Below are positions 10,869 through 39,803 of a stretch of DNA of 64,000 nt, piece by piece. The notes under the pieces are model-generated. The model saw nothing but the letters and a program-made list of their open reading frames with translations, was not told the DNA's origin and ran no database searches. Position numbers and translations under genes: made by a program. The first letter of the stretch is position 1, and every line of letters starts with the position of its first letter. The DNA is taken from contig CAOJCG010000004.1 of NCBI GenBank assembly GCA_948356915.1, positions 32,163-96,162 of the forward strand, given 5' to 3'. Source of the DNA: an uncultured Clostridiaceae bacterium (lineage in GTDB: Bacteria > Bacillota > Clostridia > TANB77 > CAG-508).

Positions 10869-11216
10869 ATGAGACCAGAAGATATAATAATAGCACCTGT
10901 TATAACAGAAAAAAGTAATGATAGTATGCAAGAAGGTAAATATACTTTCGAAGTAAACAAAAAAGCTACAAAAGTTGATATTGCAAACGCAGTAGAAAAA
11001 CTATTTGAAGTAAAAGTAATAAAAGTAAACACAGTTACTGTAAAAGGTAAAACAAAAAGAATGGGAAGATATGAAGGAAAAACATCAGACTGGAAAAAAG
11101 CAATCGTAACAATTGATACAAACCCAGGAGAAAAAACATATCTTGCAAAAGGCGGAAAAGCTACAAAAATGACTAAGAAATATAAAGATTCAATAGATGA
11201 ATTTATGGGAGCTTAG
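10869..11216 (+). CDS. rplW: 50S ribosomal protein L23 (with an atypical ~20 aa C-terminal extension)
   Basis: 115 aa; L23 core up to WKKAIVT, then [34 protein letters not shown]. Confidence 0.85.
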
Positions 11217-11220
11217 AAAT

Positions 11221-11409
11221 ATGATTAATTATAAACCAATAAATCCACATGGATTAAGTATAGGAATATGCAAAGACTGGAATTCTGAATGGTATAAAAA
11301 CGAAGATATATCACAAGAAATAGATATTAATCTTGAAAGCGTAAAAAACAATCCTAAATCTCCTATAAATAAAATTGGAAAAGTAAAAGATTGGGATGAA
11401 GAAAGATAA
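11221..11409 (+). CDS. Small ORF encoding a diverged copy of the N-terminus of ribosomal protein S3 (paralogous fragment or pseudogene)
   Basis: MINYKPINPHGLSIGICKDWNSEWYKNEDISQEIDINLE aligns with the rpsC start [39 protein letters not shown]. Shares the nucleotide 14-mer ccacatggattaag with rpsC. Confidence 0.4.
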   Translation: MINYKPINPHGLSIGICKDWNSEWYKNEDISQEIDINLESVKNNPKSPINKIGKVKDWDEER

Positions 11410-11590
11410 AAGTTATCGAGAAATAACTCGGAAAACAAAGAATATCTGCTAATACGAGGCAGGAAAAGAAAACCGTAAATAAAATTAGAAGTTAGCTGTA
11501 GGGGGCTTAATCAGTCAGGAATACTTAAGAGAATTTACCGAATTACGCCCATAAAATGCAAAACTTCCATAAAAAGGAGAGAAAAACAAA

Positions 11591-12418
11591 ATGGGAATGA
11601 AACATTTTAGACCAACAACTCCATCACTAAGAAACATGACAGTTTCTACATTTGATGAAATAACAAAGAAAACTCCTGAAAAATCTTTATTAACAGTAAA
11701 GAAAGAAAAAGCAGGAAGAAACTCATATGGTAGAATAACTGTACGCCATCAAGGTGGAGGAAACAGACAAAAATATAGAATAATTGATTTTAAAAGAAAT
11801 AAAGACGATATGAACGCTACAGTAATAGGAATCGAATACGATCCAAACAGAAGTGCAAATATCGCATTAATCGAATATGAAGATGGAACAAAATCTTACA
11901 TATTAGCACCAGTAGGGTTAACAGACGGAGATAAAGTAGTATCTGGACAAAAAGTAGATATAAAACCAGGTAACTGTATGCCAATAGAAAGCATACCAGT
12001 AGGTACATTAATACACAATATCGAATTAAACCCAGGTCAAGGTGGAAAAATGGTTAGAGCAGCAGGTCAAGAAGCTCAATTAATGGCTAAAGAAGGAAAA
12101 TATGCTCACGTAAGACTTCCATCAGGAGAAATGAGATTAGTTCTAGCAAGATGTAGAGCAACAATCGGAACAGTTGGAAACACAGACCATGAAAATGTAA
12201 AAATAGGAAAAGCAGGAAGAACAAGACATATGGGAATACGTCCAACAGTTAGAGGTTCTGTAATGAACCCAGTAGATCACCCACATGGTGGTGGTGAAGG
12301 TAGAGCACCAGTAGGACACGCAGGACCAATGACACCTTGGGGTAAACCAGCTCTAGGATACAAGACAAGAAAGAAAAATAAACAATCAAACAAAATGATA
12401 GTTAAGAGAAGAAAATAG
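11591..12418 (+). CDS. rplB: 50S ribosomal protein L2
   Basis: 275 aa, canonical L2. Confidence 0.95.
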
Positions 12419-12420
12419 AA

Positions 12421-12545
12421 TAAGTTAGAAATTAGAAGTCAGAAGTCAGAATGAAATGCATTGTATGGGCGACTAGTAGTCGTCCGCACTTCCAAGGGAA
12501 TACCCTAAATTCCGACATCCGACATCAAATTTTCGACACACAACT
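12421..12545. repeat. Heptamer-armed hairpin element (AGAAGTC arrays / TGTAKGGGCGAC hairpin core / inverted GACATCC arrays)
   Basis: agaagtcagaagtcagaa - tgaaatgcattgtatgggcgactagtagtcgtccgcacttccaagggaataccctaaa - ttccgacatccgacatc. Confidence 0.7.
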
Positions 12546-12583
12546 TTTAAAATTAATCAAAAGGGAAAGGAGAAAATTAAAAC

Positions 12584-12859
12584 ATGTCAAGATCAAGCAA
12601 AAAAACTCCATTCATTGCACCAGAATTAATGAAAAGAATTGAAGCAATGAACGAAACAGGAGCTAAAGAAGTATTAAAAACATGGTCAAGAGCTTCTACT
12701 ATATACCCTCAAATGGTAGGACACACAATAGCTGTTCATGATGGTAGAAAACATGTACCTGTTTATATAACAGAAGAAATGATAGGTCATAAATTAGGAG
12801 AATTTGCTCCAACAAGAACTTTCAAAGGTCATGCAGGAGAAAAAACAACTAAAAAATAA
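12584..12859 (+). CDS. rpsS: 30S ribosomal protein S19
   Basis: 91 aa. Confidence 0.95.
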
Positions 12860-12864
12860 ATAAT

Positions 12865-12960
12865 AGTGATACCCCCGCGCGGGACATATCTTGTCACGGG
12901 AGAAATGACCTTAGGGAAAGATGTGTCCCCGTCAGGAACTTAAACAAGATAGAATAAAAC
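12865..12960. repeat. GGGACATATCTT...AAGATGTGTCCC hairpin repeat (family G), copy between rpsS and rplV
   Basis: cccgcgcgggacatatcttgtcacgggagaaatgaccttagggaaagatgtgtccccgtcaggaacttaaacaagataga. Near-identical copies lie at 14915-15000, 15340-15525 (x2), 17875-17995, 18555-18720 (x2), 25742-25850 and 56163-56350 (x2). Confidence 0.75.
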
Positions 12961-13022
12961 ACAAAAAAAGTTAGGAACAAATTAAAATTTCTAACATCCA
13001 ATTAAACAAGGAGGGAAAAAAC

Positions 13023-13382
13023 GTGGAAAACCAAGAAGTTATAATACCAGAAGCAGTAGCAACACTTAAATATGCTAGAATTTCATCAAGAAAAGTTAAA
13101 ATAGTAGCAGATTTAATAAGAGGTAAAAATGTTGACGAAGCTTTAGCAACAGTTAAATTTACACCAAAAGTTGCATCTGAAATAATAGAAAAATTATTAA
13201 AATCAGCAATAGCAAATGCTGAAAACAACCACAATATGGCACATGAAAAATTATATGTAGCTGAAATATATGCAAATCAAGGTCCAACATTAAAAAGAAT
13301 AAGACCAGCAGCAAAAGGTTCAGCAGTTAGAATTCGTAAAAGAACAAGTCATATAACAGTGAAGTTAAGAGAAAGAGAATAA
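13023..13382 (+). CDS. rplV: 50S ribosomal protein L22 (GTG start)
   Basis: 119 aa; RBS GGAGGG. Confidence 0.9.
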
Positions 13383-13389
13383 TAAATAG

Positions 13390-13560
13390 GACAGAAGTCA
13401 GAAGTCAGAAGTCAGAATGAAAGGCATTGTAGGGGCGACTATTTCTTAGCTCTTCGAGCGTTAGCGAGTTAGAGATAAGATATGCGTTAGTGTAGTCGTC
13501 CGCACTTCGAAGAAATTACCCTAAATTCCGACATCCGACATCCGATTTCCGACATCCAAA
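13390..13560. repeat. Heptamer-armed hairpin element (same family; enlarged core loop)
   Basis: (agaagtc)x3 - ...attgtaggggcgact...agtcgtccgcacttcgaagaaattaccctaaa - (tccgaca)x3. Confidence 0.7.
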
Positions 13561-13582
13561 AAACAAGGAGGGAAAACAAAAC

Positions 13583-14242
13583 ATGGGACAAAAAATGGAT
13601 CCACATGGATTAAGAGTTGGTGTAATAAAAGACTGGGACTCAAAATGGTTTGCAAATAAAAAAGATTTTGCTAACTACCTAGTAGAAGACCACAAAATCC
13701 GTGAGTATGTTAAGAAAAAATTATATGTTAGTGGAATTTCAAAAATAGAAATTGAAAGAACTGCTAAATTTGTAAAAGTTAATGTTAACACTGCAAAACC
13801 AGGATTAGTAATTGGTAAAGGTGGAAACTTAGCAGAAAACTTAAAAAATGAATTACAAAAAATGATAGGAAAAGAAGTAAACTTAAATATAGTTGAAGTT
13901 AAAGATGTTGATTTAAATGCACAATTAGTTGCAGAAAACATCGCAGGACAACTAGAAAGAAGAATTTCATTCAGAAGAGCTATGAAACAATGTATGCAAA
14001 AAACTATGAAAGCAGGTGCTTTAGGAATAAAAACTGCAGTATCTGGAAGATTAGGTGGAGCAGACATGGCTAGAACTGAATTCTATAAAGAAGGAACAAT
14101 ACCACTTCAAACATTAAGAGCTGATATAGACTATGGATTTGCAGAAGCAGATACAACATATGGAAAAATCGGTGTAAAAGTTTGGATATATAAAGGAGAA
14201 GTTCTTCCAGCTAAGAAACAAGTGGAAGGAGGAGACAAATAA
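13583..14242 (+). CDS. rpsC: 30S ribosomal protein S3
   Basis: 219 aa, [18 protein letters not shown]... Confidence 0.95.
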
Positions 14243-14670
14243 TGCCATTAATGCCAAAAAGAACAAAATATAGAAAACAACAAAAAGGTAGAAATAGAGG
14301 AAAAGCAACAAGAGGAAATTTCGTATCAGATGGTGAATACGGACTTCAAGCAATAGAAGCAGGGTTAATTACAACAAACCAAATAGAATCAGCCCGTGTT
14401 GCTATGACTCGTTATATAAAAAGAGGTGGAAAAGTTTGGATAAAATTATTTCCAGACAAACCAATAACAAAGAAACCAGCTGAAACTCGTATGGGTAAAG
14501 GTAAAGGTGCCGTAGAATACTGGGTAGCAGCTGTAAAACCAGGTAGAGTAATGTTTGAAATAGCAGGAGTACCAGAGGAAACTGCAAGAGAAGCACTAAG
14601 ACTTGCTTCAATGAAACTATCTGTAAAAACTAAGTTTGTAAAAAAAGAAACTGAAGTAGGTGGTGAATAA
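14242..14670 (+). CDS. rplP: 50S ribosomal protein L16
   Basis: 142 aa; start overlaps the rpsC stop (TAATG). Confidence 0.95.
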
Positions 14671-14671
14671 G

Positions 14672-14875
14672 ATGAAGATAAATAAAATAAAAGAAATGTC
14701 TTCACCAGAACTAGAAAAAGAATTAGGAGAATTAAAATCAGAGCTATTCAAATTAAGATTTAGTTTAGCAACAAATGGATTAGATAATCCTATGAAAATA
14801 AAAGAAGTTAAGAAAGACATTGCAAGAATAAATACAATATTAACACAAAGAAAATTAGCAGAAAAACAAAACTAA
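14672..14875 (+). CDS. rpmC: 50S ribosomal protein L29
   Basis: MKINKIKEMSSPELEKELGELKSELFKLRF...; GTG 14660 is an alternative start. Confidence 0.85.
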   Translation: MKINKIKEMSSPELEKELGELKSELFKLRFSLATNGLDNPMKIKEVKKDIARINTILTQRKLAEKQN

Positions 14876-15011
14876 AAAATATGCGGTGGAAGGGGCTAAG
14901 CGTAGAAAAATTGACATCATTAATTCACACGTGGGGACATATCTTGTCCCAAGTGGAAATGACTTAAAATAAAGATGTGTCCCCATACCGAGGAAAGGAG
15001 ATTCATAAATC

Positions 15012-15275
15012 ATGGAAGAAAGAAATCTTCGTAAAACTTATACAGGAATTGTTAAATCAAATAAAATGGATAAAACAATAGTTGTAGCAGTAGAAACAAG
15101 TGAGAAAAACAAAACATATGGAAAAATTCAAAAAAGAACATATACATTAAAAGCTCATGATGAAAATAATGAATGTGGAATCGGAGATAAAGTAGAAGTA
15201 ATGGAAACAAGACCTTTATCAAAAGATAAAAGATTCAGACTTGTAAAAATAGTAGAAAAGGCAATTATAAAATAA
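15012..15275 (+). CDS. rpsQ: 30S ribosomal protein S17
   Basis: 87 aa. Confidence 0.95.
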
Positions 15276-15339: not shown

Positions 15340-15525
15340 TCATAAATAATGCGAGGAACCCCGAGTGGGACAATTTAAAGAAATGAATGCCCGGCGTGGG
15401 ACATATCTTATCCTTTAAGGAATACCATGGGGAAAGATGTGTACCCGTTAGAAATTAAAAGAATAAGTAGGGAAAAGATGTGTCCCCGTCAGAAACTAAA
15501 ACAAGATAGAGAAAAGGAGGCCAGC
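15340..15525. repeat. Two tandem family-G hairpin repeats between rpsQ and rplN
   Basis: Two units, each with gggacatatctt(a/g)tc...aaagatgtgt(a/c)ccc followed by gt(c/t)agaaa(c/t)taaaa(c/g)aa. Confidence 0.7.
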
Positions 15526-16494: not shown

Positions 16495-17034
16495 ATGGAA
16501 ACATTAAAAGAACAATACATAAACGAAGTAGTTCCAGCAATGATGAAAAAGTTTAACTATAAATCTATAATGGAAGTTCCAAAGTTAGAAAAAATAGTTT
16601 TAAACGTTGGTTTAGGAGATATAAAAGACAATCCAAAATCATTAGAGAATGCTATGAATGATATAAAATTAATTACAGGTCAATCACCAATCATAACAAA
16701 AGCAAAAAAAGCTATAGCTGCTTTTAAAATAAGAGAAGGTGTAAATATGGGATGTAAAGTTACATTAAGAAGTGGAAAAATGTATGATTTCGCATACAAA
16801 CTATTTAATGTAGCACTTCCAAGAGTTAGAGATTTTAGAGGAGTATCAAAAAATTCATTTGATGGTAGAGGAAATTACTCTATGGGTGTTAAAGAACAAC
16901 TAATATTCCCTGAAATCGAATATGACAAAGTAGATAAAGTAAGAGGTATGGATATAATCTTCGTTACAACAGCAAAAACAGACGAAGAAGCAAGAGAATT
17001 ACTAACATTATTAGGAATGCCTTTTAAAGCATAG
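16495..17034 (+). CDS. rplE: 50S ribosomal protein L5
   Basis: 179 aa. Confidence 0.95.
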
Positions 17035-17185
17035 AAGATAGAAGTCAGAAGTCAGAAGTCAGAAGTCAGAATAGTGTAAATATTAAAATGAGATTGTAGG
17101 GGCTTTTCATCGCTCTTAATTACTTCGAAAAAATTACCATAAATTCCGACATCCAACATCAGACATCCGACAGAAGAAAGGAGAA
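17035..17185. repeat. Heptamer-armed hairpin element (same family)
   Basis: (agaagtc)x4 - ...attgtaggggc...cttcgaaaaaattaccataaa - ttccgacatccaacatcagacatccgaca. Confidence 0.7.
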
Positions 17186-17807: not shown

Positions 17808-18012
17808 TGTAATAAAAGGGAGAATACTATAACTATTTGAACATTAATTCATAAGGGAGGGTACAGGATTTTAAGAACCTAAACCCCGCGTAGAACATAT
17901 CTTGTCACAGAAGAAATGACCATAAGAAAAGATGTGCCCTCATCAGAAACTATAAGAATTAGTGTTAAAGGTAAGGTGTCCCCTGACATTAGAAAAAGGA
18001 GGGAAAACTAAA

Positions 18013-18554: not shown

Positions 18555-18720
18555 GTTAGAACCCCGCGCGGGACAATTTAAAGAACCAAATACTCGGCGT
18601 GGGACATATCTTGTCACGGAAGACATGACCATAGGAAAAGATGTGTACCCGTTAGAAATCAAAAGAATGAGTATTAGGGAAAGATGTGTCCCCGTCAGGA
18701 ACTTAAACAAGATACATTTA
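18555..18720. repeat. Two tandem family-G hairpin repeats between rplF and rplR
   Basis: ccccgcgcgggacaatttaaag...gtgggacatatcttgtcacggaagacatgaccataggaaaagatgtgtaccc...gggaaagatgtgtccccgtcaggaacttaaacaagata. Confidence 0.7.
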
Positions 18721-18757
18721 AATTGGCAAAAACTAATTTAAGAAAGGAGAAAAGACT

Positions 18758-38593: not shown

Positions 38594-39301
38594 ATGGAAA
38601 TAGAAAAAGCAAAAGCCATAATAGAAGCGATATTATTTGCATGTGGAAGAGAAGTAAAAGTAAATGAATTAATGTCGGCATTAGAACTTAGTGGAGAAGA
38701 TGTATTAAATATAATAGAAAGTCTAAAAGCAGACTATGAAATGAATAATAGAGGAATTGAAATAATAAGGGTAAATGATGGTTTTCAATTAACTACTAAA
38801 AAAGAATACTATGAATACATATATCCAATATTCGACAAAAGAAGTAAACCAAACCTAACAAATGCAGCATTAGAAACACTATCAATAGTAGCATATAACC
38901 CAAAAATAACAAGACCAGAAATAGAAGCAATAAGAGGGGTTAACTCAGATGGAACAATGTATAAGCTATTAGAATATAACCTAATAGAGGCAGTAGGAAA
39001 AGCAGATGCTCCAGGAAGACCAACAATGTATGAAGTAACACCAGACTTTTATAGAATGTTTGGTTTCTCAAATATTGAAGAACTACCAGAGCTTCCAAGA
39101 TATAAATTAGATGAGAATCAACAAATAGTTATAGATGAGATAATAGAGGAAAATAAAGAACAAGAGGAAATGCAAGAAACTGAAAATCAAAAATCAGAAG
39201 AAAATGAAGAAAGTAATAATGAAATAGAAGATAAACAAACAAGCGAAGAAATAAATGAGGCTCCAATGCCCGAAAGGGAAGAAGAGAAAAATAATGAATA
39301 A
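38594..39301 (+). CDS. scpB: Segregation and condensation protein B
   Basis: Winged-helix ScpB motifs (AIIEAILFA, LETLSIVAYNPKITRPEIEAIRGV) and an acidic C-terminal tail. Confidence 0.85.
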   Translation: MEIEKAKAIIEAILFACGREVKVNELMSALELSGEDVLNIIESLKADYEMNNRGIEIIRVNDGFQLTTKKEYYEYIYPIFDKRSKPNLTNAALETLSIVAYNPKITRPEIEAIRGVNSDGTMYKLLEYNLIEAVGKADAPGRPTMYEVTPDFYRMFGFSNIEELPELPRYKLDENQQIVIDEIIEENKEQEEMQETENQKSEENEESNNEIEDKQTSEEINEAPMPEREEEKNNE

Positions 39302-39385
39302 TAAATTTGTTGTAGGGGCTTAATCGGTTAGGAATACCAAGGAGAATTTACCGAATTACGCCCTAAATATATTAAAATTAATTTA

Positions 39386-39655: not shown

Positions 39656-39803
39656 GAAAAGAAAATAAAAGGAAATTGAAGATTAGAAATGATTGTAATG
39701 GAGTGCTATCAACACGTCAGTTCTTCGAAGAGATTACCTGAATTCCAACATCCAACTTCTAACTTCCAACTTCCATAAAATAAAAAAGGAGAGAAAACAA
39801 AAA

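Follow-up and report, generated by a model that had tools for sequence, protein, structure and literature searches.

When examining the S10 ribosomal protein operon in a 64,000-nt stretch of DNA from an uncultured Clostridiaceae bacterium (assembly GCA_948356915.1, contig CAOJCG010000004.1, positions 32,163 to 96,162; hereinafter, the window), we observed that the spacer between rplW and rplB contains a small open reading frame (ORF) of 62 codons plus TAA (11221..11409, plus strand), the predicted product of which, MINYKPINPHGLSIGICKDWNSEWYKNEDISQEIDINLESVKNNPKSPINKIGKVKDWDEER, resembles the N-terminal segment of ribosomal protein uS3. The interpretation that we favor, with about even confidence and on the strength of sequence comparison, is that this ORF is a translated, dispensable passenger gene, so that what selection would maintain is translation across the insertion and not the peptide itself. 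The ORF belongs to a family that is unnamed in databases and that we denote S3N, a name coined in this analysis.

The junction reads TAG-AAAT-ATG, that is, the ORF starts 4 nt past the rplW stop codon, and the last codons of rplW, ATG GGA GCT TAG, provide a Shine-Dalgarno-like sequence, GGGAG (11208..11212, plus strand, as read from the sequence), 8 nt 5' of ATG 11221. The original prediction started the ORF at 11197 and gave it 63-70 amino acids; the ORF exists, and the ORF listing gives it as 11197-11409 (70 amino acids), but ATG 11197 is located inside rplW, in another frame, and the true start is almost certainly ATG 11221 (MINYKP..., 62 amino acids), judging from the gene calls in three lineages that begin at the equivalent of 11221 and from the orthologs in L003 and L040 that have no upstream ATG. 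Comparable start geometry is seen in L003, L040, L011, L031, L044, L063 and L075, and the position and spacing of the window ORF are those of a translationally coupled (relay) ORF. No promoter-like or terminator-like site was found between rplW and rplB, and therefore the ORF is part of the S10-operon mRNA. It occupies the entire insertion of ~190 nt, with the stop codon 7 nt before P1, the first hairpin of a structured leader that precedes rplB. One protein, P0001, is identical to the window ORF, the predicted tryptic peptides of which are PINPHGLSIGICK, DWNSEWYK and IGKVK/DWDEER; the species of the window is represented in samples ERZ14651334, SRR30218823 and SRR13921780. The opposite strand carries a 69-amino-acid ORF (11229-11438, minus strand) that overlaps the S3-like ORF and probably arises as a side effect of the sense strand being rich in purines and poor in stop codons.

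The homology of the ORF to the uS3 N-terminus, as claimed in the original prediction, was confirmed by BLASTP, by a profile search of the PDB and by the NCBIfam model TIGR01009. Motif 1 (KPINPHGLSIGICKDWNSEWYKNE; 11233..11304, plus strand), the homolog of uS3 residues 3-26, aligns with the S3 protein of the same genome (rpsC positions 13592-13663) with 11/24 identities and 20/24 positives (BLASTP E 5e-9), and a second internal BLASTP match pairs KIGKVKDWDEE with an 11-residue stretch of S3. The resemblance is not confined to the genome's own S3: when a profile built from the ORF and two orthologs was compared with 177,635 PDB sequences, the top 46 matches were all uS3, at residues ~4-30 (best E 3e-5). 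The sole NCBIfam match is TIGR01009 (rpsC), over profile positions 5-32 of 212 (E 3e-4), with a score of 20.5 bits against the curated cut-off of 114.5, so a whole-protein match is not reached. The conserved uS3 N-terminal segment (GQKxxPxGxRxGxxxxWxSxW) is present in the ORF, whereas KH_2 and Ribosomal_S3_C, both of which Pfam finds in the full-length rpsC gene, are found in the ORF by neither model; Pfam has no model for the uS3 N-terminal segment. AlphaFold2, given a 21-sequence alignment, predicted no independent fold for the window peptide (predicted local distance difference test score, pLDDT, 55; predicted template modeling score, pTM, 0.16). Thus, the S3 N-domain that had been suggested reduces to the first ~30-45 residues of S3, and the product, with 62 residues, no KH_2 or Ribosomal_S3_C domain and no predicted fold, is, on these predictions, unable to replace uS3.

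The ORF was described in the original prediction as an unusual occupant of this spacer, and it is indeed restricted to certain lineages. As relatives we used 80 loci returned by an L23 scan of the genome collection, nearly all labeled as metagenome-assembled genomes of uncultured (gut) Clostridia and related to Clostridium sp. CAG:780/CAG:440 and Ca. Merdicola. Over these loci, the rplW-rplB spacer varies from 62 to 775 nt, and the rplC-rplD, rplD-rplW and rpsC-rplP junctions are tight. In the closest species (L2 99.6% identical, L23 96-99% identical, flank dS 0.05-0.08), the spacer consists of a variable 5' part, a conserved core of ~65 nt and, sometimes, a further insertion before the rplB ribosome-binding site. 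The ORF is syntenic in L081-L092 and in L003, L012 and L040. Seven lineages, that of the window included, have an intact frame: the window (P0001); P0002 (which occurs in ~70 of the collection's index blocks), with an in-frame 18-nt deletion; P0003, with an in-frame 21-nt deletion; P0100 and P0106; L003/P0011; and L040, where L23 is only 81% identical and the ORF, much eroded, retains 51 codons in the same place. Disruption is seen only in L012, with TGA at a conserved Trp codon, and in P0005, which is related to L012 and carries a frameshift. In L004, only the last ~12 nt remain; in L001, L002, L005 and L006, as well as in L093, which is otherwise close to the P0003 locus, an unrelated short sequence takes the place of the ORF. 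The absence from close relatives that the original prediction considered damaging is thus real in part, the nearest relative, L001, having a palindromic repeat where the ORF would be and L002, L004, L005, L006 and L093 having no ORF, but other close relatives keep the ORF intact and preceded by GGGAG. A scan of JGI metagenomes with the ORF profile found no relatives; a second one, based on the leader sequence, picked up a single locus, L093, in which the ORF is absent. Taken together, these comparisons indicate that the ORF is probably dispensable.

In the window's clade, dN/dS (the ratio of nonsynonymous to synonymous substitution rates) of the ORF is 0.63-1.68, as estimated from 8-17 substitutions, compared to 0.15-0.40 for rplW and 0.03-0.07 for rplD and rplB, and among the three closest forms the variable sites are distributed over the codon positions as 9:4:7, the two estimates together drawing on 8-20 substitutions. 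The arginine of motif 1 that is near-invariant in the family is serine in the window. Apparently, then, the peptide in this clade drifts almost freely, under relaxed constraint. The frame, for its part, is retained: the indels in the ORF are all multiples of three (18, 21 and 9 nt), and the frame is still open in L003, at 30% divergence, and in L040, at much higher divergence. In neutral simulations with the local base composition, the frame stayed open in 48%, 23%, 3% and <1% of the cases at 5, 10, 30 and >=45% divergence, respectively.

The ORF sits in a hypervariable slot, which in other loci holds a different insertion. We defined this slot as the stretch from the rplW stop codon to the leader hairpin and tested the 34 loci with a slot of at least 120 nt. 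In 15 of the 34, a single ORF covers at least 80% of the slot, and in 17 the slot ORF beats at least 98.8% of the shuffles (in 16 of these, at least 99%); among the controls, none of the 24 leader-to-rplB segments and none of the 41 other long operon spacers reach 60% ORF coverage. The slot ORFs start 3-13 nt past the rplW stop, and the majority terminate with ...EER*, 3-14 nt short of the hairpin, these terminal codons being common to the S3N ORF and the unrelated slot ORFs of other lineages. The types are mutually unrelated, namely, S3N, a family in L007/L008/L024, another family in L073/L074, and singletons of 57-178 amino acids in L011, L020, L031, L043, L044, L063 and L075; none has a significant match in NCBIfam. 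The slot of L036 likewise holds a small ORF after rplW. Structured repeats occupy the other long slots.

Under the passenger-gene interpretation, ribosomes finishing rplW would re-initiate on the ORF and produce an unstructured 62-residue peptide with the uS3 N-terminal segment. Selection would keep the frame open so that the inserted RNA is translated up to the structured leader and the operon mRNA stays covered by ribosomes, avoiding transcriptional polarity or decay; a ribosome terminating on the ORF may, in addition, transiently melt P1. The S3-like sequence itself would be inherited from the family and not selected in the window's clade. Several observations weigh against this scheme. We infer translation of the ORF only from its signals and from the conservation of its frame, and that ribosome cover of operon mRNA averts polarity or decay is general background that does not come from these organisms. 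The dN/dS estimates for the clade carry a wide error, given the small number of substitutions. Furthermore, the orthologs were recognized by open S3-like frames, and any decayed copy would count as an empty slot, so that frame retention looks stronger than it is. The blocks NPKSPINRIGKI and DWDEER are conserved in five lineages of the window-type group and could reflect real constraint on the peptide. Finally, the long slots of L014/18/22, L047-50 and L054/58 hold structured repeats without an ORF, so translation of the insertion is not obligatory, and other spacers of 160-270 nt in the S10 operon are untranslated.

The S3N family extends far beyond the ribosomal operon, and its second motif, KIGKVKDWD (motif 2; 11371..11397, plus strand; NKIGKVKDWD, residues 50-59, in the window), is, according to the family alignments, a derived signature. 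An exhaustive profile search of 1.84 billion cluster representatives retrieved truncated S3 fragments and small proteins whose alignments span both motifs (P0006, at 6.7e-8, P0007, P0008, P0009, P0020, P0021, P0056, P0061, P0064 and others), the family members aligning through query positions 6-62; motif 2 is common to P0006, P0007, P0009, P0020, P0021, P0056, P0064, P0086-P0090 and others. A second search, with the family alignment, yielded ~30 clusters with both motifs, none of which has a name from any source save P0113, a 'hypothetical protein'. The consensus comprises a 23-residue segment, 12-25 mostly acidic residues, (L)KIGKVKDWD and a variable tail, and the window ORF carries both defining elements, motif 1 within the first ~30 residues and motif 2. 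The MGQN...PHT-L state is common to L003/P0011 and P0020; L003/P0011, P0100 and P0106 have N4 and T9 in common with P0020, and P0100 and P0106, as well as L003/P0011, bridge the MINYKPINPH of the window to MxxYGMGQxFNPH. Because motif 2 and other derived states are shared, S3N is one lineage and not a set of independent rpsC fragments; as far as these alignments tell, the family descends from a 5' fragment of rpsC, and motif 2 could have originated as a repeat of motif 1 or as a derivative of S3 helix 1 (KIREYVKK).

The family takes several forms: a short one of ~56-62 amino acids, which includes the window type; a long-tailed one of ~90 amino acids with the conserved tail ...FIRAV...RLILPRxRLLT; the P0117 type, of 95-106 amino acids, with another conserved C-terminal tail, ...FEKISVKAQNF...IWHRTKRQIVVVV; and a multi-motif form, of 105-159 amino acids, in which two or three S3-like motifs are combined with another C-terminal module, the gene being located between an rsmI-like gene and pth-mfd. 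In the last group, P0015 (105 amino acids; L107-L110, 4001-4318, with relatives of up to 159 amino acids) contains two or three S3-like N-terminal motifs and the conserved C-terminal module YISxDLIHHSLExRKIHLVKLLGKKKY..KVKTLSR, and its gene lies 5 nt 5' of pth, with the synteny of the rsmI-like methylase gene and pth-mfd conserved. The possibility that the ~90-residue form is a diverged complete S3 N-domain (KH) was rejected, given that hhalign comparison of the tails with S3 residues 30-110 gave a probability of 1.3% and AlphaFold2 predicted for a 91-residue member no KH fold, only a long C-terminal helix (pLDDT 61). An L34-like reading of the tail ...LPRRRLLT was dropped, having no support in Pfam. 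A separate case is P0004, a truncated JGI metagenome protein of 104 amino acids, which is a genuine rpsC product with the first ~25 codons tandemly duplicated in frame, as seen over the first 50 residues; it shows that duplications of the rpsC 5' end occur naturally.

Outside the window's clade, S3N ORFs are not found in ribosomal operons. Several have recombinases or defense-type genes nearby: in L094, a tyrosine integrase and AAA_14/DUF4143; in L103-L106, AAA_21/RloB downstream of the ORF and either a resolvase or acpP upstream of it; and in L111-L114, a large serine recombinase. In L100, the ORF is flanked by VWA genes on one side and by a gene for a class I aminoacyl-tRNA synthetase (Pfam tRNA-synt_1c) on the other. 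P0061, a stand-alone S3N, and the genes downstream of it (MBL-fold hydrolase ... AAA_21/RloB) are 99.9% identical between L103 and L104, and the upstream flanks are wholly different (resolvase versus acpP); the breakpoint, ~600 nt 5' of the ORF (coordinates 3384-3406), suggests the boundary of an island. These stand-alone units have a -10 box, a 5'-terminal hairpin (TATAAATTGGTA...CCAATTATA) and a terminator, and the loop of the 5' hairpin is complementary to a segment just past the stop codon, 3-8 nt before the terminator hairpin. This architecture was found in L094, L096, L099-L103 and L111, with the following 5' loops and 3' segments: GTCGCTCGA and TCGAGCGAC in L094, GTCGCTCAAG and CTTGAGCGAC in L103, GTCGCTCGG and CCGAGCGAC in L111, GTTGCCCAAGT and ACTTGGGCAAC in L102, GUUGCUCGA and UCGGGCGAC (with G-U pairs) in L101, ACTCTAGAT and ATCTAGAGT in L096, and GCTCTAGAT and ATCTAGAGC in L100. 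Single-locus shuffle tests of the 5'/3' pairing were mostly not significant, chance helices of AT-rich sequence dominating the null distribution, and the case for the pairing rests on its fixed position, on the compensatory changes between loci, across eight loci, and on minimum free energy folds, which recover it in 5 of 6. The architecture was not found around the window copy, in which the ORF abuts rplW.

A possible, though rather doubtful, alternative to the passenger-gene interpretation is that the peptide acts in trans as a functional mimic, occupying or competing for the binding site of the extended uS3 N-terminal segment, be it the 30S head rRNA with uS10 and uS14 or a factor involved in assembly or quality control; location within the S10 operon would then provide co-regulated expression at the level of a ribosomal protein. 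The stand-alone members speak for such a function. Their motif codons vary far more at third than at first and second positions, and the pairwise dN/dS is 0.12-0.7, which points to constraint at the peptide level, so that a ratio below 1, which the original prediction proposed to look for, is seen among these relatives and not in the window's clade. Besides, C-terminal tails are kept within subfamilies, one subfamily has the conserved synteny beside pth-mfd, motif 1 retains, in many members, 80-95% identity with the uS3 consensus, the two blocks mentioned above persist in five window-type lineages, and the lack of a fold would be expected of a segment that folds only on its partner. Within the window's own clade, however, dN/dS is ~1, the near-invariant arginine of motif 1 has been replaced by serine, sister species with near-identical ribosomal proteins have no gene or have alleles with a stop codon or a frameshift, and in L040 the motif has eroded beyond recognition though the frame persists. 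The conservation of motif 1 elsewhere could stem, in part, from gene conversion with the rpsC of each genome, and there is no known binding partner. For the family as a whole, we consider it unlikely that the S3N peptides are an unrecognized class of trans-acting mimics of the uS3 N-terminus that tune or sabotage small-subunit assembly. If they are, the mimics would be made from very stable mRNAs paired end to end, or from inside the S10 operon, and would dock on the 30S head or on a factor for assembly or quality control; the frequent recombinase and defense neighbors would then point to conflicts between mobile elements, phages and hosts.

Quite unlikely, in our assessment, is a decaying relic under no selection, that is, an S3N or rpsC fragment that came to lie in the spacer and that mutation has yet to erase in this lineage. 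The dN/dS of ~1 and the even spread of substitutions over codon positions are what such a relic would show, as are the repeated independent losses, with two different disabling mutations in one lineage (L012 and P0005), and at the 5-10% divergence that separates the window from P0002 and P0003, the frame survives by chance in 23-48% of the simulations. What this leaves unaccounted for is the open frame in L003 and L040, at divergences where simulated survival is 3% and <1%, along with three indels that are all multiples of three, a 7:1 ratio of lineages with intact and disrupted frames, the retained start position and GGGAG, and the significantly long ORFs of unrelated sequence that fill the slot in many lineages.

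We regard as highly improbable a recent local duplication, or gene conversion, of the 5' end of the genome's own rpsC within the S10 operon. The 14-mer CCACATGGATTAAG, which the original prediction had noted as shared with rpsC 2.3 kb downstream, does occur in the 64 kb only at 11245 (11245-11258) and 13601 (13601-13614), where shuffles expect 0 occurrences, and motif 1 and rpsC form a direct repeat (D6) with 73% DNA identity over 63 nt. Over the 24 aligned codons, however, DNA identity is only 49/72, and an identical 14-mer is expected with a probability of ~0.25 from the shared peptide PHGL and the codon bias of the operon (CCA 0.85, CAT 0.67, GGA 0.57, TTA 0.75), so the 14-mer is no evidence of recent copying. 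The ORF is more similar to P0100 (66%) and P0106 (62%) than to the S3 of the same genome (46% over 24 residues), carries the family-specific motif 2 that is absent from S3, and loses all similarity upstream of the start codon; because orthologs in the same position reach as far as L040, the insertion must be old. Of the two options offered by the original prediction, therefore, the small S3-N paralog is nearer to the truth, and the relic of a rearrangement within the S10 operon does not agree with the derived characters that the ORF shares with a family dispersed at non-ribosomal loci. Chance resemblance in an AT-rich spacer is practically negligible, considering that the top 46 PDB matches and the only NCBIfam match all converge on uS3 and that the ORF profile matches the rpsC gene in every related locus that includes it.

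A phage or plasmid origin was also considered and rejected: the tblastn matches are annotated as rpsC or align like it, in chromosomal-looking records, and a PHROGs scan of the ORF and its relatives gave no match; Pfam assigned the same set to no family. Three records labeled 'UNVERIFIED: Bacteriophage sp.' (L115, MT835564.1; L116, MT835508.1; L117, MT837789.1), from human fecal samples, hold complete bacterial S10 operons (rplB-rpsS-rplV-rpsC-rplP) and are probably bacterial contamination of the virome set.

The leader at which the insertion ends (11416-11477) recurs at the corresponding place in ~65 of the 80 related loci. It consists of the hairpin P1, UCGAG-AAAUAA-CUCGG (11416..11431, plus strand), followed by the helices P2 (CUG 11446-8/CAG 11460-2) and P3 (11453-6/11474-7), which form an H-type pseudoknot (11446..11477, plus strand). 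P1 shows compensatory changes in alignment A4, the variants among 39 diverse relatives being CGAG/CUCG, CUGG/CCAG, CGGG/CCCG and CUAG/CUAG. In these 39 sequences, 95.7% of the cells are paired and 8 of the 13 pairs have changes on both sides, with 75 double-change cells against 20.8 in shuffles (none of 500 as good); in the control with partners slid, only 28-51% are paired. The leader matched none of the 4,227 Rfam families, and the Rfam 15 gathering scores gave 0 matches in the 64-kb window; for six stand-alone S3N loci searched at E up to 1, Rfam gave two sub-threshold, unrelated matches only. The element is a candidate for a new ribosomal-protein autoregulatory leader. Between it and the ribosome-binding site of rplB lies a copy of an intergenic repeat (family C; 11477..11555, plus strand), with blastn identities of 83% to 39289-39367 and 81% to 24560-24632; this insert is missing in L002-L006, where the ribosome-binding site follows directly after the leader.

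The surrounding operon (9001-15275, plus strand; G+C of the DNA ~30%) is a standard S10 operon: rpsJ (9001-9327), rplC (9596-10225), rplD (10245-10868), rplW, encoding uL23 of 115 amino acids (10869..11216; Pfam Ribosomal_L23 at residues 5-83, E 3e-33), rplB, encoding uL2 (11591..12418, with the Shine-Dalgarno sequence GGAG at 11576-11579), rpsS (12584-12859), rplV (13023-13382), full-length rpsC, encoding uS3 (13583..14242), and rplP (14242-14670), with further genes after it. The atypical C-terminal tail of L23 mentioned in the original prediction is real: PDB L23 chains align only to residues ~3-91, leaving an extension of ~24 residues (~92-115), before which the solved bacterial L23 chains stop. 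The 115-residue L23, extension included, was retrieved from all 80 relatives, and hence the extension is a trait of the clade, unrelated to the S3-like ORF.

At least three families of structured intergenic repeats are present in the spacers of the S10 operon and of other operons in the window. Family A, made of AGAAGTY heptad repeats, a GGGCGACTA/TAGTCGTCC hairpin and complementary CCGACATCC repeats (9330-9560, 12419-12545, 13385-13560, 17030-17170, 26400-26456, 39715-39800, 52845-52912), fills several spacers of ribosomal protein operons, with related copies in L081 and L103. Family B has the hairpin GGGACATATCTT...AAGATGTGTCCCC (12860-12955, 14930-14985, 15390-15510, 17884-17951, 18597-18722, 25744-25837, 56160-56330), and family C, the third type, is found at 11477-11555, 24560-24632 and 39289-39367.

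A search of the literature found no description of such S3-like ORFs. The 'novel ribosomal' small protein of Sberro et al. is DUF4295, next to L28/L33, and is unrelated. The closest known protein is, of course, uS3 itself, with which the ORF shares homology at residues ~3-30 (up to ~59 in the longer relative P0079) as well as operon and strand, and from which it differs in its 62-residue length, in the missing KH_2 and Ribosomal_S3_C domains, in a model score so far below the cut-off and in the additional motif KIGKVKDWD. A precedent for a regulatory or mimic role, by analogy, is AcnSP of Synechocystis, a 44-amino-acid peptide that resembles the N-terminal portion of aconitase and regulates this enzyme (PMC7336809). 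In both cases, a short ORF reproduces the N-terminal region of a larger, essential protein of the same genome. The parent of S3N, however, is ribosomal, the family is dispersed and patchy, partly beside recombinase and defense genes, S3N is known here from sequence, and the peptide is unconstrained in the window's clade.

Other parallels involve the arrangement of genes and RNA structures. Translationally coupled cistrons and upstream or leader ORFs occur in bacterial ribosomal protein operons. The window ORF is similar in starting 4 nt past the stop codon of the preceding gene, inside which lies a Shine-Dalgarno-like sequence, in the conservation of position and not of the peptide, and in ending beside a structured, regulatory-looking leader; it differs in not being found in all relatives, which argues against an integral regulatory part of the operon. 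Autoregulatory leaders with pseudoknots are exemplified by those of rpsO (S15) and the alpha-operon (S4) in Escherichia coli; the element at 11416-11477 similarly combines a covarying hairpin with an H-type pseudoknot just 5' of a ribosomal protein gene, but is located inside the S10 operon, before rplB, and has no match in Rfam. Type I toxin mRNAs such as hok fold back, with the 5' end pairing with the 3' end, and the stand-alone S3N genes resemble these in that a small ORF is enclosed by 5'/3' pairing and followed by a terminator. However, S3N encodes a hydrophilic peptide and not a membrane toxin, no antisense RNA was seen, none having been looked for, and the window copy is devoid of the fold-back architecture.

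Textbook biology is not changed by these findings alone. If correct, they would place three unannotated things in a single 375-nt spacer of a highly conserved bacterial operon. One is a family of mini-genes that arose from the 5' end of a gene for a ribosomal protein and now has promoters, structured mRNAs and subfamilies of its own; S3N would show cleanly how, in nature, a piece of a gene turns into a gene, and would be a candidate mimic of a ribosomal protein. Another is the covarying RNA before rplB, absent from Rfam, as a candidate new autoregulatory leader. The third is an insertion hot-spot of the S10 operon, in which small ORFs of unrelated sequence are gained and lost between species whose ribosomal proteins hardly differ and the inserted RNA tends to stay translated, so that the slot could be used for studying the birth and death of ORFs and the avoidance of polarity.

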